A stretch of DNA of 64,000 bases from a virus (IMGVR_UViG_3300004807_000021:10712-74711); one strand, 5' to 3'. Shown: positions 3,218 through 34,188, numbered from the stretch's first letter. Numbers and translations: made by a program. Notes: generated by a model not told the origin, from the sequence alone.

Positions 3218-6200
3218 TTAATCAGTCAGTGGTATAGTCATGGATTCTGCGTTGGCAAAGTTACTAGCATAGGTAGTGTACACTTGTCCGAACACGTTTA
3301 CAGTAGTACCAGTTGCCGCACTGGCTGCCGATCCAGACAACATCAATCTTCCATCTTTATTAACCCATACTAACCATTTGTATGCATCGCCTGGGCCTGC
3401 ATATCCCATGCAATTATCCATGTAGCCCTGCATGCCTGGAGCACTACGCAGTGGCTGCCATGCAAATGAGTTTACAATTTCAATACCGTTGGCATCACTA
3501 CCATTGGTACCGCCAAATGATGCTACGTTGGGTGCAGTTGATATTGCGCCGTATGATGCGTTTGGACCACTTCCGCTAAATCCAGTACTACATTGTCCGT
3601 AAAAATTATTACCTATACTAAAACTCATACCGTTGTCTAGTACTATGGTTGCTGAAACATAACTGTTCCAAGCACTAAACGCCAGTTGTTTTACGTTTGT
3701 AAGATTATAAAAACTTCCAGCAATATTAATTTTGCTAACTGTTGCTGTGCTGTTATTTGAAGTTACTAGACCAGTAGCTCCTAATTGTCCTTGTCCGTTA
3801 TATCCGCAAGTATAGCAAAGTCCTGTATTTTTATCACGTTGCATCATTGTAGTATAAGAACCGCCTGATCCGTATAACCACATGTCAACGCATGCACTGT
3901 TGGCCACAGTACCTGGGCCGCTACCTACTGGAGACCATTGAGGATTAGCTACAGTACCACTTCCTGCCCAGCCACTTGCATTGTTACCTGCTATGTAAAC
4001 TTGACCTGTACTGGTTAAAACAGCCGAGCAAGCATTTGTGGCTGCACTACCGGTAAAGTTGTCTGACACTTGTATTTTTACTATGGAACCTACTGCACCA
4101 CCACCAAACGGTGTGCTTGGAGCACCGGCTGTTGTAACTTGCACTGGTTGGAATCTGTTGGTTGTATCATTTAATCCTAATTGTCCACTTCCATTTGCGC
4201 CCCACGCCCACAAGTTGCCGTCCGCGGTTACAGCAAAACTCCAACCGTTAGTAGAAGCTCCACATGCCCAAATAGCTACAACCGATTGTCCTGGTCCAAC
4301 ACCGCCCACTGCAAATGCTGTTCTTGGCAACTGTTGTGGTATGCTATAGTTGGTTGTATTATTTGTTCCTGTAATGAAACCCACGCCCAACTGTCCGTTG
4401 TTGTTTGATCCCCATACCCACACGTTACCGTTCTCGTCAATTGCCATGCAATGACGTCTGCTATCAGCAAATCCGCAACCACCGCTCATACTGATACGTT
4501 TGATACGCACATTGCTAAACGCATGTCCAGCAGTTAAAATAGTACCAGTAGAATAAGTAGTTCCAGTTGCAGTTGTGTTAGCATTGACACTAACTAAAGA
4601 TCCGCCTACACGCACTGGATATGCTCTATTATTAGTAGATGCGTCTCCGTTTTCACCGCCTGTAGCACTGCCCCATGCAAATACTTCACCCGAATTCATT
4701 AATACTAGATTACCGTCATAACTTTTTTCCCACTGTATTACACGAGGTAAATTGTTATCTGGTGTTGAATGTACACCGTTTCCGCTATTACTAGCTGAAC
4801 GCCAGTAATCATAGAATGGAAATGATAATGCAGTTAATGCAAAAGCACTAGCACCGCTAGTTGCTTGTCCGCCTTGTGGAACACCTACGCTTCCGTTAAC
4901 ATCTAATCCCCATGACATAGCTTGACCATTGTAAGCTACGTATCCAAAACTAGGACTATCTGTAGTATTTTTAGTTGAACCATTATAATAGTTAGGACTG
5001 TTATCAAATGCAATGCCCCTGTTAGGCTGTACTAGTACTTGATAATTGTTGTTACCATACACACCAAGATTATAACCGCCCTGTGTACTGCTTGGTGCAA
5101 TTTGTGTACCCAACAATCCTCTACGTGTTACAGGAGTCCAATAAGCTGAATCTATAGGAGTGATAACTGGAGATGTTAAACTGGCAGTATGTGCTTGAAT
5201 ACAATAATATGCCTGTGTTACGGTTCTGCTTAAACTATAGTTACCAGCAATACTAGTCGGTACTGTTAACAAACTTGTAGGAGTAGCATAAACTACTGTG
5301 TCTCCTACGGAATAAGTTTGTCCGTTTGTCCATGTACCGTTGTTATTGAATAATTGTGTAAATGAAGTCCAGTATGCACTTCCTACTGCTGGAACTCCTG
5401 GTGCAACTGTTGTGTAAGTCAAATTGTTGGTAGGAGTAACTACTAACGAACTTAGTGTATAAACACCAGTTCCATTACCAGCGGCTGCCGCTGTAATGGT
5501 AGTAACGTTAGATGTGCTTGAAACTGTTCCTAAACTTCCGCTTTGCATGCTAAGTGTTGTAGTATTAGCATACGTCACTGTAGTAGAAGTACTAGTCAAT
5601 ACTACAAATGTTCCGTTGTAGCCTAATGGAGTAATACCTTGCACAACAATGGTAGAACCGCTAGCAAATGGAGTGCCTGTTGATTGAATTGGAAATGTTA
5701 GTGTAGCAACTGAACCAGTGCCAGTTGCATTGGTTACAACTAACGGTGTTGTAGAACCTGCTATTACCTGGCCTACTGCTAAAGATCCGTATGCAACAAA
5801 AGATGTGCCTGTAATCAGTGCAGATCCTGAACTTACTGATCCAAATGTATAAGCTGTAAATGTTATGTAAGTGCCTGCTATAGCATTGGCGTAACTTGTT
5901 GATAGAGTTAATGTTGTTGCAGAAAGTACGTTACCAACAAAATATGTAGTTGCTGTTAACCCGCCACCAGCGTTTCCACTTACAACAAATCTGTTACCAG
6001 TTTGCAACCCTGCTGTACTGGCTACTGTTACAGTAGTTCCAGCTGATGTAGAAATAATGCTAGTTCCAGTCGATAGTGTGATTGGATTTAGTGATGTTAC
6101 TGTTAGGGTATAGTTAGTTTGACTACCTACAAACGATGCAGTTTGTGTTGGCTGTGTACATACCCATTGTTGTTGACGATATGTCACAATATCGTTTGCA

Positions 6201-16782: not shown

Positions 16783-18552
16783 TTAAGCGTTGTCGATCTT
16801 AACAGAAACGTTGGCTGTTGGTGCACCAAATGTCCAGTTAACTGTTGATCCATCTGTAAACTGTGTACCTGTATTACGAGTTACACGGCAACGACGATTA
16901 GTAATCTTAGTTACCCAATATGTACCACCAGCGGAATCAGTAGCGTTGATAGCCATTGTTCCACCAACTGTTGGGAAAGTGTTAACTAATTTAGCGTAGA
17001 ATACACCGTCAGAACTTTCAACACGGAAACGTTGTGTGTTTTCTTGTTTGATAATGTCTGTATCTTGACGAACAACACCGCCTGTTGTAATTAATGACTG
17101 TGCTTGGATAGCGGCATAGTTACCAGTATAACCAGTTGTTACCTGTGCGGCAAATGTCATTGTTGCAACTGCGACACCTGAACCAAATGTGATTGCTGTG
17201 TTACCACTTACTACTGTAGTAATTGTCAAACTTGATGCTGAAGTTACCACTGCGGCACTACCACCTACTGAGCTACTTAGAACAATTTCAGTTGATCCGT
17301 TAACTGCAATAATGTAGTATGTACCAGCCGTCAAGCTACCGCCTGAACCAGTTGTAACAACCTTCATACCTGGAACTAATTGGTCTGTGGAACTTACTGT
17401 TTCTTTGTACAATACAATTGATAAACCAGTTACTGCACCTGCGGCACCACCTGATAGTGCTGTACCGTCAAGTTTTGTCAATGTTAAAGTACTTGTACCA
17501 TTAGTAGCACTGACCAAATAACTGTTGCCAGATGCAAAGCCGCTGTCGATGAATGCTGTGTTGCCGCCTGGTGTGCCAGTAAACGAAACAACTTGACCAA
17601 CATAGAATGTATTAGCAGATTGTGCTGTACCCAATGTGATTGAGTTGAAAGGTGTAGCACCAACTGTGATTGTACCATAAGTACCACTAGCAATAGTTGT
17701 TGCAGTTGTAGCACTAATACCAGGAGTTACTGGAACTGTGTTGATATAGCCGTTACCAGCATTAGAATATGACACACCATTAACACCAAATGTTGCTGGG
17801 GCGATTGTCAAACCAGAACCAAATGCGGCTGTAGTTGCTTGAGCGGCAGCTAGACCAGATGTAACACCTGACTGAGCGTATGTACCGCCCGATACTACTG
17901 CTACAGAAGCTACTGATGCATAAGTTGTACCAATTGTTAGTGTTAGAGTACCTGTTGGTGTACCACCAGCAATACTAATTGCGGCGCCACCGTAAGATGC
18001 ACTTAGAGTCACTGTTGAACTTGATGTTACACTTGTTGTAATGTAATATGTTGAGCCAGCTGTTAGACCAGTTGAGCCAGTCAAACCAGCGTTAAATATA
18101 ACGCTTGTTCCAGCCAAAGCTGTAATTGTACCACCAGATAATGTCATTACACCGCCCGATGTAATACTAGCAATGCTAAAACCACTGTAAGTTGTTAGTG
18201 TTGGAGTATATGTGCTTGTAACACCACCATACGTAACCGAAATGCTACCAGCTGTTGGGGCATAAGCTGTTGTTTGTGAACCAACTGCGTTAGTTGTACC
18301 AGTTAAAATAGTAAATGTTGGTGTACCAACTGCTGTTACAGCACCTTCGCCAGATAGTGCTGGCTTTGGAAATGTTGTTGTTAGAGCGGCAGCCTGCGAT
18401 TGAGTATAAGAACCAGCTGTTGTAACGTTTGCGTTAAGAGCTTTTAGACCACCTAAGTCGTAGTCTGTTGGCAACAAGTTTGTGTTACCAAATGTGCCTG
18501 CGGCACCTGTATTACGTTTACCAATATATTTTTTATTTAAGGGACGTCCCAT
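16783..18552 (-). CDS. Virion structural protein, candidate capsid decoration/head fibre
   Basis: 589 aa, rich in Thr/Gly/Ser/Ala. Has its own late promoter, strong AGGAG RBS and a 3' hairpin, and lies just downstream of the capsid gene. Role inferred. Confidence 0.55.
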   Translation of the reverse strand: MGRPLNKKYIGKRNTGAAGTFGNTNLLPTDYDLGGLKALNANVTTAGSYTQSQAAALTTTFPKPALSGEGAVTAVGTPTFTILTGTTNAVGSQTTAYAPTAGSISVTYGGVTSTYTPTLTTYSGFSIASITSGGVMTLSGGTITALAGTSVIFNAGLTGSTGLTAGSTYYITTSVTSSSTVTLSASYGGAAISIAGGTPTGTLTLTIGTTYASVASVAVVSGGTYAQSGVTSGLAAAQATTAAFGSGLTIAPATFGVNGVSYSNAGNGYINTVPVTPGISATTATTIASGTYGTITVGATPFNSITLGTAQSANTFYVGQVVSFTGTPGGNTAFIDSGFASGNSYLVSATNGTSTLTLTKLDGTALSGGAAGAVTGLSIVLYKETVSSTDQLVPGMKVVTTGSGGSLTAGTYYIIAVNGSTEIVLSSSVGGSAAVVTSASSLTITTVVSGNTAITFGSGVAVATMTFAAQVTTGYTGNYAAIQAQSLITTGGVVRQDTDIIKQENTQRFRVESSDGVFYAKLVNTFPTVGGTMAINATDSAGGTYWVTKITNRRCRVTRNTGTQFTDGSTVNWTFGAPTANVSVKIDNA

Positions 18553-18559
18553 TTTGTTT

Positions 18560-18645
18560 TCTCCTGTAGAAAAACGGCGTTCTAGGCCGTACGCAGTTGG
18601 ATTTCTGCATAAAACTCACCCCATGTGAGTCGTACATTGTATTTA
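18560..18645 (-). promoter_or_regulatory. Late promoter plus three-hairpin 5' leader
   Basis: TAAATA at 18640-18645, then ACUCAC/GUGAGU, UAUGCAG/CUGCGUA and ACGGC/GCCGU stems before the AGGAG RBS. Confidence 0.6.
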
Positions 18646-29205: not shown

Positions 29206-30030
29206 ATGAATAACCCCTTACAAAAGTATTTTAGACAACCCAAAATTTTTATTCGCCTGCCCAGCGGAGGAGTTTTCAATCAGCCTGGTGCTATTCAGGG
29301 CGATCCTGAACACATTCCTGTCTATGGCATGACTGGCATGGACGAAATTATAATTAAAACGCCCGACAGCCTGTTGACAGGAGAAAGTACGGCAGCCATT
29401 GTGGCCAGTTGCTGTCCCACTATTAAAGATCCATGGGATGTCAGCAACATTGACCTGCCCATTATCATGGCAGCCATACGCATTGCCACATTTGGTCCCG
29501 AGCTGGGCGTTAGTCACAAGTGTGACAACTGCGGTACTGTAAACGAATATGACTTGGAACTCAATAAAATCATTGAATACTACATGACCACACAGTTTGA
29601 CAATCAATTGATTGTGGGCGAGCTGGCAGTTAAACTGCGCCCTTTGAACTATAAAGAAAGCACAGACGTCAGTATTAAAAACTTCAAGATACAACAACAG
29701 ATTTCACAAGTGGAAGCCATTGAAGATGCTGACCAACGTCAAACTGTATTGAATAGACTGTTTGTTGAACTGGCACAGGTCAACAATGAAATATTCAAAA
29801 TGGTAGTGGAAAGCGTTGAGATTGACAATCAAGTGGTAACTGAACGCAGATTCCTAGAAGAGTGGATTGACAACTGCGAAAAACATGTGTTTGATCAAAT
29901 CAGAGATCACAACAAGGGCAATGCAGATCGCTTTAGCATGCCCTTGTTTCCTGTCAAGTGTGACAACTGCGGAACCGAAGTCAAACTGTCTGTGGATCTA
30001 GATCAAAGCAGTTTTTTCGTTCAAGCCTAA
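29206..30030 (+). CDS. Baseplate hub assembly protein, T4 gp26/gp51-like
   Basis: NPL..YFRQPK..I.LPS.G, MT..DE...K.PD.LL.G, D...I..AIRIAT.G motifs and two CxxC pairs; GGAG RBS. Confidence 0.75.
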   Translation: MNNPLQKYFRQPKIFIRLPSGGVFNQPGAIQGDPEHIPVYGMTGMDEIIIKTPDSLLTGESTAAIVASCCPTIKDPWDVSNIDLPIIMAAIRIATFGPELGVSHKCDNCGTVNEYDLELNKIIEYYMTTQFDNQLIVGELAVKLRPLNYKESTDVSIKNFKIQQQISQVEAIEDADQRQTVLNRLFVELAQVNNEIFKMVVESVEIDNQVVTERRFLEEWIDNCEKHVFDQIRDHNKGNADRFSMPLFPVKCDNCGTEVKLSVDLDQSSFFVQA

Positions 30031-30251
30031 TTAGTCTCTCACCCCAAGAGATTGAACAGAAATTAATTAGGCTAGACAATCAAGTTAAAGAATTCAAACA
30101 AGACTTATTTAGAATCAGTTGGTATATGCGAGGGGGTGTAACTGTTAATGATCTACTACAGACCTACAGTTACGAAGATCGTGAAATGATATACAACATT
30201 ATCAACGACAATATCAAAGCCACTCAAGACACGCGAATGCCATTACTGTAA
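30018..30251 (+). CDS. -1 frame extension of the gp26/51-like gene (77 codons), probably reached by ribosomal frameshift
   Basis: Open frame RSSLISLSPQEIEQKLIRLDNQVKEFKQDLFRISWYMRGGVTVNDLLQTYSYEDREMIYNIINDNIKATQDTRMPLL*. It begins at the slippery T TTT TTC and has no ATG/GTG/TTG until 30126. Confidence 0.75.
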   Translation, partial: RSSLISLSPQEIEQKLIRLDNQVKEFKQDLFRISWYMRGGVTVNDLLQTYSYEDREMIYNIINDNIKATQDTRMPLL

Positions 30252-30684
30252 AGAAGAACTGCGTTCTTCTGTTCTTCGCTTTCGCTCGAACTATTCTAGC
30301 TTCACAATTAAACGCGAAGCGTTAAGATATTATCTAGATCGTTCAGTCACACTTTGCCCTAGCGGGCAAAGCGAATGGACATTATCTGAGTCGAACAATA
30401 TCACTTAGCGTTAGCACTAGAACGTAGGCGGTCATCCGGTACCTACTCATGCTGTCTTTATATGACGGCGGGCTTGTTGCATACGCTAACACACAACAAA
30501 CCGTGGGGCTACAACCCCTCTTTTAGCCTTTTGAAATCTTTCTAAACAGCAAAACCAGTTGTATGAAGGCATATCTGATCCACGTCCTGTCAAGGATAGT
30601 TGCTGAGTACTCCTACGGCTGGAGAATTCCGTCCCTCTTATTATCGAGTTGTCATGGGCGCATGATGTTGGCCTGCGCTAGCTT
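30252..30684 (-). ncRNA. Candidate large structured non-coding RNA (~430 nt) downstream of the GIY-YIG gene
   Basis: More than ten hairpins and long-range helices in an ORF-free gap of an otherwise gap-free region. Most imperfect pairs are G-U on the minus strand (A-C on plus). No family recognised. Confidence 0.65.
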
Positions 30685-31122
30685 TTAACCGTTTAACTGT
30701 TTGCCTTTGATGTGGGAGCCGTGGACACGAACAGATATCTGACCATTGTAATAGTCGTCAGATTCCAATACCCTGCGTGTAAATTGTTCTCGTGCCTCTA
30801 TGTATGACGTTTCGGCTTTACTGGTACAGTAAAATAATATTTCTCGCCGAAAGTTTTCTTGACCTAACTGCGCGACATCCTTGAGTAGTTCGTCTGAAGA
30901 TCCATAATAGTCTCTCCAGTCTGAATCAATTTTGCCACGGATTTTCTTTTTTTTCTTAGTGCCGTTCTTTAATTTAACTACTTTGTATGTGGTTTTAGAA
31001 AATTTAGCTAGTTTTTTGCCTATGTACATACGCCCTGTGACTGTATTTGTTATAAGATATACAAACCCAACACAGGTTTCGGGCAATTCTGTTATTAATT
31101 GATTTTCATAGTACCAGGACAT
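30685..31122 (-). CDS. Stand-alone GIY-YIG family endonuclease
   Basis: GFVYLITN...GRMYIGKK, Y.GSS, F.REIL..C, E...Q and YYN motifs; 145 aa with no separate C-terminal DNA-binding domain. Confidence 0.85.
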   Translation of the reverse strand: MSWYYENQLITELPETCVGFVYLITNTVTGRMYIGKKLAKFSKTTYKVVKLKNGTKKKKKIRGKIDSDWRDYYGSSDELLKDVAQLGQENFRREILFYCTSKAETSYIEAREQFTRRVLESDDYYNGQISVRVHGSHIKGKQLNG

Positions 31123-31134
31123 TAACTATGTAGT

Positions 31135-31404
31135 TTATTCTGTCCCAGAGTCCTTGTCATTTTGGTTTGCCTTGCGTTCAGCCTTAGATTGATCTAGATA
31201 CACACGATACTGCTGTACGTGTTCTCTACGTTGTCGTGCTATAATACGGATCTGCGCTAGCCAGTAGCGCATGTTTTCGCCTGCTCGTCTTGTGCCTTTG
31301 CGTTGCCAATCCTGATTGGCCTTAAAGTATTCTCTAAAGGCCGCCATGAGTTGCTCATGCGACTCTTCATTTTGATAGGGACTGGGCTCAACGTGCTTAC
31401 TCAT
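31135..31404 (-). CDS. Small basic helical protein, Hc1-like putative nucleic-acid-binding protein
   Basis: 89 aa. KGTRRAGENMRYWLAQIRIIARQRR resembles the KG.KAAG.RARK.L...RR pattern of Hc1-like proteins. Confidence 0.5.
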   Translation of the reverse strand: MSKHVEPSPYQNEESHEQLMAAFREYFKANQDWQRKGTRRAGENMRYWLAQIRIIARQRREHVQQYRVYLDQSKAERKANQNDKDSGTE

Positions 31405-33178
31405 TTACTTCTAGATCATTGGCATACGAAGTATAGCCATTCTCTTTGATAACTTTGAGCACGTTGTTGACACGGCCAATCAGTTCATCACGGTGCGATA
31501 TCAAGAAAATATTCTTTTTACGTTCACGCGACATCTTTTTAAGCACTGCCAGTGCGCCTTCAACACCCGACGCATCGAGTCCGTTGTCAATAAGCTCGTC
31601 CACAAACAGCAAGTTAATGGGCTGATATAGACTTTCCCACACATCTCTAAAGGCCCATGACAGGGACAGTATCAAGCGATTACGCTCGCCACGGCTCAAG
31701 TTATCAAAGTCTAGGTCCTGACCCAGCTGAGTAATCAGCACACTTAGGTCGTTTTGGAACATGACAGTATGTGGCAAGCCCATCTTATCAAGATAATAAG
31801 TCAATCGATTGTTTAGATAGGCCAAGTTTTGATCAATAATCTTCTTACGAATAAAGCTATCCTTGCTGGTTAGTAGTTTAAGCAAGAACTCTTGATGATC
31901 TTTCAGCTGTGTAAGCGTGTTGACTGTGTCCCAAGTGACTTCTTGTATGGCAGTATTGGTCAATTCATCAATCTGTTCCTGGTAAGGATCGGACTCGCCC
32001 GCCTTGATCTGTAGCTGTGTTTCAAGAGTTTTAAGATTGTTTTGATGTTTAAGCGCCTGTTCAACGCTGTCATAGTAGGTAGTGGGCTTGCGAGGAACGT
32101 CTCCAATGGCGGCAATTTCTTTTTGTATTTTGTTGAAATCTTTTGTGACCTTGTCCAAATATTTTCGGGCCTCATCAAGGTGCTGTTGTGCCGTAGCAGT
32201 CATTTCTTCATGTTTATGGTCATGGAGAGTTTGTTCACAAGCGTGACAGGTCTTGTTAGCCAACTTGGCGAGCTCGCCGTCATACTTTGTGACGCTTCGC
32301 TCCGCTTGCGCTATCGCGCTATTTAACGTAGCTTGTTCCTTTTCTAGGCTTTTTAGCTTTGCTGATTTCTCAGCAAACTCCTTGAGCTCCGTATGCTTCG
32401 CAAGCTCAGCTTCAATATCTACGCCCTCAAGTTCTACAATAGCCCTGCCAATCTTTTCAACTTCGGTGGCATGTTGATTGCGCCAAGCACTTTGCCTAGT
32501 TAGAATGCCATCAATACTCTTTTGAATGTTTTCATTGCTACGTTTGATAGCTTCTATGTTGGCTGATTCTTGTGTAATATTGTCTTTAGTTTGTCTAATT
32601 TGTTCTTTAAGAGCTTCAGCTTTCTCACTTAACAGAGTAATACCTAGAAGTTGTTCAATGATCACTCGCTGATCATTGGCCCGCATACTTAAAAACGGTT
32701 CTGTATATGTGTTTAATGCAACAATGTGCTTGAACATGTCGTGACTCATGCCCAGAAGATCGTCTAAATCCTTCTGAGTTTCACGCATGTCGCCCTGACT
32801 GTCATCTGTTTCTTCAACATCTTGTGCTTGATCGTTGACAAAAAATTGCATGACAGTGGGTTTGCGTCCACGTTCAATACGATAATCTATTCCGTCTTTT
32901 TCAAAAGACAGAGTAACCAACATGTTTTTGTTGTTAATCTTGTTGATTAAGTTGTCTTTCTTGATATTAGTAAGTGCATTACCAAATAAAGCAAAACTCA
33001 ATGCGTTGACAATAGTAGTCTTACCCGTACCATTACGGCTTCCGCTGTCGTCGCCGCCTTGATCTAAGTTTTCGCCTAGTACAAGTGTTAAATTTTCTTG
33101 TGCAAAGTTTACAGCCTGGGTTTGATTACCCACACTCATAAAGTTTTTAACTGTTAATTCTTTTAATTTTATTGTCAT
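31397..33178 (-). CDS. gp46: Recombination endonuclease ATPase subunit (SbcC/Rad50-like)
   Basis: KNFMSVGN, Walker A NGTGKTT, zinc hook CHAC, signature LSRGE, Walker B LLFVDE, ISH. Confidence 0.95.
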   Translation of the reverse strand: MTIKLKELTVKNFMSVGNQTQAVNFAQENLTLVLGENLDQGGDDSGSRNGTGKTTIVNALSFALFGNALTNIKKDNLINKINNKNMLVTLSFEKDGIDYRIERGRKPTVMQFFVNDQAQDVEETDDSQGDMRETQKDLDDLLGMSHDMFKHIVALNTYTEPFLSMRANDQRVIIEQLLGITLLSEKAEALKEQIRQTKDNITQESANIEAIKRSNENIQKSIDGILTRQSAWRNQHATEVEKIGRAIVELEGVDIEAELAKHTELKEFAEKSAKLKSLEKEQATLNSAIAQAERSVTKYDGELAKLANKTCHACEQTLHDHKHEEMTATAQQHLDEARKYLDKVTKDFNKIQKEIAAIGDVPRKPTTYYDSVEQALKHQNNLKTLETQLQIKAGESDPYQEQIDELTNTAIQEVTWDTVNTLTQLKDHQEFLLKLLTSKDSFIRKKIIDQNLAYLNNRLTYYLDKMGLPHTVMFQNDLSVLITQLGQDLDFDNLSRGERNRLILSLSWAFRDVWESLYQPINLLFVDELIDNGLDASGVEGALAVLKKMSRERKKNIFLISHRDELIGRVNNVLKVIKENGYTSYANDLEVNE

Positions 33179-34188
33179 AGGCTGTTATAAATTGCTAGTA
33201 ATGTATTTTTGTCGTAAGTATCACTGTCAATATTGACAATTTGACTAGATACAATTTGATCTACACTTTCAAATGCTTGTACATCTATGTTGGTATTGAT
33301 TTCAACATCTTTCTTTTCAGCAATAAGTGTAAGTTCTCTAATGTCATAGTCTGCTACAAACTTTTCTTTGATAAAACTAGCTTCTTCATATGTGATATCT
33401 ATGTCTAGTGTAACACGTAAATGTTGCTTGGGCAATATTATTTTGTCCGCTTCATCAATTAGTTGACTTAATTTAATAGTTCTAAAGGTAGGTTGTCCTG
33501 GCCAACTATGATATTCTGGAGTTCCTCCCCATTCTAAAGTCATCATTCCACGCTCGTCGTCCCATGCATCTGCATAATTGTGCGGAAATGCATTGCCAAT
33601 ATAGATCATATTGCCTTTTTGTTGACGTTTATGAAAGTGTCCGCTAAATCCTAGCTCATATTGTTTGAAACTATCTAACTGAATCTCTCCGTGATCCGGC
33701 ATTTGCACCATTGCATTCATGAAGAAGCTGGGGAGTTCGAAGTGTCCGAAGATGTATTTTCCGCCTTTTTTGCTAATGGATCTCCACTCTTCGCCAACCA
33801 ACCACGGACAAAGGGTGACATCTCCAATAGTAGTAGGCTCGTGTACGACAGTGACACCAGGAATATACTTTCCAAATTCCACACTGTGTATGTCCCGCTT
33901 ATCCTTGTAATATAAATCATGATTACCAGGAAAGAAATAGAAGTTATCAAACGCCTGCCCCAGCTTTTCCAGGGCCCTAAGGCTATAATCCATTGTAGTA
34001 ATGTTAAGGCTATTACGATTATGATGCCAATCGCCCATAAAGATACCTGTATCACAACCTTCCTCCTTTGCTTTTGCAATGTACCAATCTACAAAGTCTT
34101 CACAGTCTTGGTTGTGTACACTACTGTTAGACTTTAATCCGAAATGAATGTCCGTAAAACAAGCTACTTTCTTAAACAACTGTGTCAT
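33175..34188 (-). CDS. gp47: Recombination endonuclease nuclease subunit (SbcD/Mre11-like)
   Basis: TDIHFG, GDWHH, GNHD, GHFE and SGHFH metallophosphoesterase motifs. Confidence 0.95.
   Translation of the reverse strand: MTQLFKKVACFTDIHFGLKSNSSVHNQDCEDFVDWYIAKAKEEGCDTGIFMGDWHHNRNSLNITTMDYSLRALEKLGQAFDNFYFFPGNHDLYYKDKRDIHSVEFGKYIPGVTVVHEPTTIGDVTLCPWLVGEEWRSISKKGGKYIFGHFELPSFFMNAMVQMPDHGEIQLDSFKQYELGFSGHFHKRQQKGNMIYIGNAFPHNYADAWDDERGMMTLEWGGTPEYHSWPGQPTFRTIKLSQLIDEADKIILPKQHLRVTLDIDITYEEASFIKEKFVADYDIRELTLIAEKKDVEINTNIDVQAFESVDQIVSSQIVNIDSDTYDKNTLLAIYNSL

Follow-up and report, generated by a model that had tools for sequence, protein, structure and literature searches.

The 64,000-nt stretch of DNA analysed here, hereafter the window, belongs to a 74.7-kb IMG/VR viral contig with T4-like genes and derives from an uncultured freshwater phage. 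On its minus strand, a gp47-like gene (33175-34188) is followed by a gp46-like gene (31397-33178), an 89-aa highly basic ORF (31135-31404) and the gene of a 145-aa GIY-YIG nuclease (30685-31122), a homologue of PSSM2_218 of cyanophage P-SSM2. From the other side, a baseplate-hub-like gene (29206-30030) and a 41-aa ORF (30126-30251) converge on them on the plus strand. Between the stop codon of the nuclease at 30685 and that of the 41-aa ORF at 30251 lies a gap of 433 nt, which holds only chance ORFs of 35-41 aa. The basic ORF between gp46 and the nuclease is kept in most related loci (35-90% identity), and neither Pfam nor PHROG has a family for it. No tRNA genes (0) were found in the 64-kb window. 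The order gp47, gp46, small ORF, nuclease, RNA and convergent baseplate genes is constant among relatives in which gp46 is only 50-60% identical, and by this gene order the locus reads as syntenic, not mobile.

The gap is occupied by a structured non-coding RNA of about 435 nt on the minus strand (30250-30684), as indicated by end-to-end nhmmer matches and by covariation. When viral contigs were searched with the nuclease, more than 600 places matched, and in more than 50 of the 80 loci taken for examination, nhmmer found the full ~435 nt conserved on the same strand behind the nuclease. Its 5' end lies 1 nt past the nuclease stop codon in the window and 1-48 nt past it across loci, while sequence conservation falls off past about 30250. 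Single-sequence folding did not discriminate the strands (z of -2.5 on minus and -2.25 on plus). For covariation, 44 full-length copies were aligned with MAFFT and fitted to no structure (alignment A1), and on this alignment RNAalifold returned 62 pairs, 43 of them with compensatory changes. A consensus of 70 pairs in 13 helices was assembled from the RNAalifold result and two pseudoknots. In A1 this structure has 96.2% of its cells paired, against 78.7% after shuffling and 35-44% with the partners displaced by 1-3 columns; both-sided changes occur in 52 of the 70 pairs, and none of 500 shuffles reached any of five covariation measures. Since there is an Rfam match on the minus strand and G-U pairs are many, the RNA is assigned to that strand. 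The initial annotation had proposed a large structured RNA on the strand of the nuclease, and both parts of that proposal, the RNA and its strand, are borne out by the end-to-end conservation and covariation of these 44 sequences and by the Rfam match with its G-U pairs. On these comparisons, the identity and extent of a conserved structured RNA at 30250-30684 are nearly certain. BLASTN of the gap and gene against 50,697 phage records gave no match. Two runs labelled 'metatranscriptomic', probably DNA, and one DNA run yielded only contigs of relatives; one of these, of 260 nt, spans 30260-30509, and contig depth can neither rank genes nor show ends.

The 5' third of the RNA is already on record. 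By cmscan, positions 30544-30683 on the minus strand match the Polynucleobacter-1 motif (Rfam RF01718) with 90.9 bits (E 4e-18; gathering score 37), over model positions 1-141 of 141. The motif was described by Weinberg et al. (2010, Genome Biol 11:R31; PMC2864571), whose supplement lists environmental samples and one Polynucleobacter genome as sources, with fresh water as the habitat, and places the motif downstream of GOS11034 or PSSM2_218-like genes; the authors report none in purified phage. This published context holds in the window, where a PSSM2_218-like gene lies upstream. As PSSM2_218 is homologous to the nuclease of the window, the pairing of motif and gene family has been on record since 2010, with the identity of the gene as a nuclease not given. 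The RNA had been taken in the initial annotation for one that could not be recognised; this holds for its remaining ~295 nt, and not for the first 140 nt or for the position behind a gene family known since 2010. No other Rfam family was found in the gap down to an E-value of 10, and a 23-bit match to a tracrRNA lies on the wrong strand and was discarded as noise. The RNA of the window is the full-length form of Polynucleobacter-1, about three times as long as the catalogued motif, the rest being uncatalogued. What is new against the public record is the full length, the 3' core with an alternative 5' domain, and the twin boxes described below. A second catalogued orphan motif of the same phage, freshwater-2 RNA (RF02980), is found at 18550-18630 on the minus strand (71.9 bits, gathering score 49.9), where it lies in the leader of a structural gene.

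In the relatives, helices 1, 2 and 4 of the RF01718 domain show both-sided changes in 13 of 17 pairs. Past this domain stands a 12-bp hairpin (30471-30502; helix 5) in which all 12 pairs show compensatory changes, and its loop, UUAGCGU (30489-30483), pairs with ACGCUAA (30411-30405; helix 6) in a first pseudoknot, PK1, where 7/7 pairs change on both sides and 96.4% are paired. The second pseudoknot, Hx (30431-30466; helix 7), joins GUCAU (30466-30462) to AUGAC (30435-30431), the latter strand being the loop of an AGGU/GCCU hairpin. Hx is 98.6% paired, and two of its positions divide the alignment without a single exception into CG (25) or UA (19) and GC (25) or AU (19). Two identical heptamers follow, which we call twin boxes: box 1, AGAUAAU after ACUC (30381-30387), and box 2, AGAUAAU after AUCU (30329-30335), 52 nt farther on. 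Between them stands the hairpin CUUUGCCC-GCUA-GGGCAAAG (30351-30373; helix 10), whose GCC/GGC is replaced by AGCC/GGCU and CACC/GGUG in variants (alignment A2). Beyond box 2 come a small UUCG-loop hairpin (30311-30323; helix 11), missing from some homologues, and a variable A-rich linker. The next element is GUUC-GAGC-GAAA-GCGA-GAAC (30271-30291; helix 12), a hairpin with a GNRA loop and a tandem G.A/A.G that reads GA in 42 and AG in 44 of the 44 sequences; its inner GC/CG pairs are counted in helix 12, and covariation of its outer stem was judged by eye. The RNA closes with an 8-bp terminal hairpin (30252-30270; helix 13; compensatory changes in 7 of 8 pairs), which adjoins the stop codon of the convergent 41-aa ORF and is likely the 3' end of the RNA or a terminator.

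Most of the stems in the fold first drawn from the single sequence are upheld by the alignment, namely GCGCA/UGCGC, CAGCAA/UUGCUG, UCC/GGA, the 12-bp hairpin at 30471-30502, GUAGG/CCUAC, the CUUUGCCC/GGGCAAAG hairpin, the UUCG hairpin, GC-GAAA-GC and the terminal AGAAGAAC/GUUCUUCU stem. Two proposed hairpins give way to the pseudoknots, both of which were absent from that fold: the loop AUGAC of CGG-AUGA-CCG pairs instead with GUCAU at 30466-30462, and the ACGCUAA of UAGUG-CUAA-CGCUA pairs instead with the hairpin loop UUAGCGU. In homologues, the bases of the long-range helix GUUCUAGU/GCUAGAAU are for the most part unpaired, and the helix GAUAUUGU/AUAAUAUC and a pseudoknot GCCUU/AAGGC are weak in the alignment. 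As a separate observation, a pair in the box-flanked hairpin covaries on each of its sides with a base in the AUAAAG loop (3'-core columns 30, 115 and 129; window ~30459, 30368 and 30356). This base is the same as one side and complementary to the other, a hint of a base triple or of alternative pairing.

The two ends of the RNA differ in constancy. For nine loci, the match to the nhmmer profile was confined to the 3' half, and an RF01718 match was found in none of the nine (0/9); aligned together, these loci share a different conserved 5' domain before the same 3' core. In L047, L056, L059, L074, L049, L050, L053 and L077 this type B domain, which has no Rfam family, occupies about 200 nt before the core. 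From 101 sequences, a covariance model of the phage 3' core (model R1) was built; it gives the window 125 bits and retrieves cores missed by nhmmer in L078 (70 bits) and L072 (18.5 bits). Since the core is found without an RF01718 match (L078, 70 bits), we take it as the constant part of the RNA and the 5' domain as exchangeable.

The strongest covariations among 148 distinct 3' cores join bases that are identical, not complementary, at a constant offset. These sites lie in two direct repeats of ~23 nt, GUGAC...A-CUC/UCU-RGAURAU, which contain the boxes. At the four variable positions, box 1 equals box 2 in 148/148 distinct RNAs. On a tree made from the remaining columns, parsimony counts ~43, 7, 23 and 14 changes at these positions, and in many pairs of nearest neighbours both boxes differ at once. 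Two of the positions, R1 and R2, are 4 nt apart and occur in all four combinations, and across 52 nt the two R1 sites are always the same. Because linkage cannot explain free mixing of R1 and R2 together with constant identity of R1 with R1, selection must keep the boxes alike. Outlying cores use other words under the same rule (AGACGAA in L078, ACAUGAA in L072).

Several local explanations for this identity were tried and rejected. A box is not the loop of a local hairpin, as the first closing pair is kept in 141/150 sequences and the next pairs in only 63-88/150, and an antiparallel duplex of box 1 with box 2 was ruled out by inspection. No third column that tracks the boxes was found in the RNA and its flanks, where the next-best mutual information is 0.21-0.32 against 0.95-1.0 for R1 and R2. 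Exact reverse complements of the box have no preferred place in flanks of up to ~10 kb, and the search for inverted-repeat targets of the box gave 1 chance match in 1.56 Mb. In its register, with a constant j minus i, the covariation is what parallel strands would give. Of the readings that fit, we infer two sites for one outside partner as more ordinary than direct homo-pairing of the boxes. Two sites 52 nt apart that have changed together dozens of times and never apart point, as an unusually precise hypothesis, to a single reader of both.

The 145-aa protein encoded by the adjoining gene matches Pfam PF19835 (SegE_GIY-YIG) with an E-value of 2.5e-33, falls into PHROG family phrog_447 and is 37% identical to the 145-aa PSSM2_218 of P-SSM2 (E 4e-20). 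Residues G19, Y22, Y33, G35, R93, E109 and N126 are invariant in 11 homologues. Its AlphaFold model (pLDDT 86) comprises the catalytic domain only, with an inserted basic beta-hairpin; the three best fold matches in the PDB are I-TevI catalytic domains (Foldseek probability 0.99, with weak E-values of 0.05-0.1), and a PDB search with the sequence gave no significant relative. The motifs, the Arg, Glu and Asn residues and the modelled fold place the protein in the GIY-YIG superfamily as a predicted nuclease.

An independent sample, drawn by scanning viral contigs with a DNA pattern of the 3' core alone, shows how common the RNA is (at least 120 contigs) and how closely the gene accompanies it. 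A GIY-YIG gene lies directly upstream of the RNA in ~70 of 80 loci examined, including nucleases only 39% identical. The association is not obligate in either direction. Behind nucleases 76-81% identical to that of the window, a membrane-protein gene comes next and neither nhmmer, Rfam nor the core model finds the RNA, and the nuclease occurs without the RNA in L066, L075, L081, L082, L087, Methylophilales phage Melnitz, Synechococcus phage S-SRM01 and P-SSM2, the last three of which (the named phages) have no such gap. Conversely, the RNA occurs without a GIY-YIG nuclease in L122, L140, G001, G142 and G189. It lies behind a MazG-like gene in another phage context in L122, and in L140 a 173-aa PDDEXK_15 endonuclease (3963-4484) takes the GIY-YIG place and ends ~16 nt before the RNA, a non-orthologous replacement of one small nuclease by another. 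The junction of nuclease and RNA is a hot spot of insertion, where L126, L127, L135, L160 and L161 carry unrelated cargo genes (257-356 aa) between the two and the RNA stays 3'-terminal. Cargo genes in L126 (4369-5259), L127 (8190-9017), L135 (10375-11148) and L160 (536-1606) have no Pfam match.

Copies of the RNA in bacteria widen this picture. Among 57 bacterial genomes searched, RF01718-positive RNAs of ~480-620 nt are present in three, all of one Burkholderiales genus, which hints at a possible host of the phage in that order. A fourth match, in G196:C3 (L105), lies on a 56.7-kb contig with gp47, gp46, the nuclease and the RNA, and is a T4-like phage contig binned with a bacterium. In the bacterial trio (L101 6706-8713; L102 9288-11564; L106 in G189), a divergent DUF6641 gene is followed by the RNA and then by a tyrosine recombinase of 188-221 aa on the RNA strand. 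The other flanking genes differ, with an IS30-like fragment or a second integrase nearby. A SegE-type GIY-YIG gene was found nowhere in the one trio genome searched. The model of the phage 3' core gave no significant match at the bacterial loci, where likeness is seen by eye only, in a twin CAGCGAAA/UAGCGAAA, a GAGC-GNNA-GCGAA hairpin and a terminal hairpin; by inspection, the bacterial 3' parts may be homologous to the phage core. Their boxes read AGCGAAA twice, and in one copy (G189) the two agree in 6/7 letters. DUF6641 does not serve as a marker of the RNA, as 25 copies in 13 of the 57 genomes include only three with twin boxes, those beside RF01718, and an invertible switch for the recombinase was set aside since no convincing flanking inverted repeats were found.

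Taken together, we lean towards a free, independently folding RNA, the full-length Polynucleobacter-1, with two boxes for one partner and with the nuclease as a neighbour and not an obligate partner, a reading that we hold somewhat more probable than all others; its mode of action is much less certain than the identity and extent of the RNA. Under this reading, the RNA would be transcribed as the last element of a unit of gp47, gp46 and nuclease and would end at its own hairpin; transcription with the upstream unit is suggested because a separate promoter would not fit in front of the RNA, and simple scans showed none. It might then act as a scaffold or a decoy, presenting two identical boxes to one outside partner taken twice, perhaps a protein that dimerises or a nucleic-acid sequence present in two copies, and the nuclease would be a neighbour in a conserved gene order. 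Two points temper this reading. The identity of the boxes could have another cause, such as homo-pairing in parallel register, and a functional tie between RNA and nucleases may exist, given the adjacency in ~70 of 80 loci and the second nuclease in L140.

That adjacency could also arise from homing, in that a free-standing homing-type nuclease has settled beside an RNA gene and perhaps cuts within it in phages that lack the nuclease. RNA and nuclease would then travel together without working together, which would explain the adjacency and not the function of the RNA. The family is SegE-like, the RNA gene has long invariant runs, and SegB of T4 is located in the tRNA gene cluster and cuts there. 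Moreover, the nuclease is 72-75% identical in L041, L052 and L078, where gp46 is only 51-53% identical, and other nucleases are found at or near the site, PDDEXK_15 at the same place in L140 and a second GIY-YIG ORF near the L116 locus. However, the nuclease is almost always present at the locus and not sporadic, it has no separate DNA-binding domain, and its family is near-core in cyanophages with no RNA nearby, so that we consider homing an unlikely account.

A role in cis is slightly more doubtful. Here, the knotted fold and terminal hairpin would guard the mRNA upstream against 3' exonucleases or end transcription of the convergent units, in line with the terminal hairpin next to the stop codon of the convergent ORF and with the invariably 3'-terminal position of the RNA in its unit, which persists past inserted cargo genes. 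Protection or termination would nevertheless need far less than an RNA of 435 nt that has invariant runs, twin boxes and two pseudoknots, and the bacterial copies stand alone behind no gene, divergent from DUF6641.

The RNA as scaffold or guide of a catalytic-domain-only GIY-YIG enzyme, the nuclease-RNA system of the initial annotation, now appears improbable. Such a system would account for the close proximity of the two genes in most loci, which extends to nucleases of only 39% identity, for the missing DNA-binding domain and for the substitution by another small nuclease in L140. Against it, the family is widespread without the RNA, including the copies 76-81% identical, and the RNA occurs without the nuclease, so that linkage of the obligate kind seen in OMEGA systems is lacking. 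No hypervariable guide-like segment was found at either end of the RNA, both ends being conserved helices, and the variable stretches are covarying stems or A-rich linkers; a scaffold with a hypervariable guide at its end is thus absent as well. Behind homologous nucleases, the initial annotation had proposed to look for a conserved scaffold with covariation and for a variable guide segment, and the comparison yielded the former without the latter. Nor did any nuclease column follow R1, the fastest-changing box position, above a permutation null; some columns exceeded that null for R2, with relatedness uncontrolled. The PDDEXK swap and the bacterial recombinase leave slight room for a functional tie to DNA-cutting enzymes, and they fit a turnover of homing-type genes beside a conserved target equally well.

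Still harder to credit is direct pairing by the boxes themselves. In one form, the twin boxes would base-pair with a sequence present twice, as in an inverted repeat whose two arms are read from opposite strands of the DNA, and the RNA would aim small enzymes at a symmetric site, as an adaptor for proteins that lack a DNA-binding domain, GIY-YIG or PDDEXK in phages and the short tyrosine recombinase in bacteria. In the other, the boxes would pair mutually in parallel register through A.A, G.G, U.U and C.C, a homo-paired motif for which we know of no precedent in natural RNAs. Lastly, a ribozyme, which might for instance cleave itself off the mRNA immediately past the stop codon, is most improbable: the size, pseudoknots and invariant unpaired runs are within the range of ribozymes and the 5' end lies 1-48 nt past the stop, but no Rfam ribozyme or intron family matches at E-values up to 10, there are no flanking exons, and no conserved cleavage-site signature was recognised. 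A group I intron in particular was rejected, as there is no Intron_gpI match at E-values up to 10, the genes upstream are complete, a convergent gene lies downstream and the bacterial copies contain no ORF.

To our knowledge, large and intricately folded orphan RNAs are rare, and such RNAs have been a repeated source of new biochemistry. With the full length, two pseudoknots and an exchangeable 5' domain in hand, structural and genetic work on this RNA becomes feasible. The annotation as an RNA-guided GIY-YIG nuclease, tempting and unsupported, is now removed.

Compared with known systems, the closest relative is the catalogued Polynucleobacter-1, a motif of 141 nt without assigned function, phage source or 3' core, whereas the RNA of the window has ~435 nt, is carried on T4-like phage contigs and has a core that combines the twin boxes with two pseudoknots and a GNRA hairpin; like the catalogued motif, it also has bacterial copies (Burkholderiales). 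The nuclease resembles the Seg proteins of T4 and I-TevI in its SegE_GIY-YIG Pfam family, in the modelled fold of its catalytic domain and in its intergenic site in a T4-like genome. Unlike these, it has only 145 aa, without a linker and DNA-binding domain, and it is strongly conserved, with a near-constant place at a single locus. GOLLD and ROOL are large, elaborately folded RNAs of phages, prophages and mobile islands, first found in lake metagenomes. The RNA described here is likewise a large, intricately folded orphan carried by phages, but it is smaller and has no Rfam match to either, and we know of no twin boxes among the features described for them. OMEGA RNAs (HEARO/IscB, TnpB) and the IS110 bridge RNA are structured RNAs encoded beside a small enzyme that cuts or joins DNA, and our RNA likewise adjoins a small enzyme gene. 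In contrast to theirs, this enzyme is a GIY-YIG, a PDDEXK or a tyrosine recombinase and not RuvC/HNH or DEDD, the linkage is non-obligate both ways, and in place of a hypervariable guide there are two boxes that vary at four positions, always jointly.
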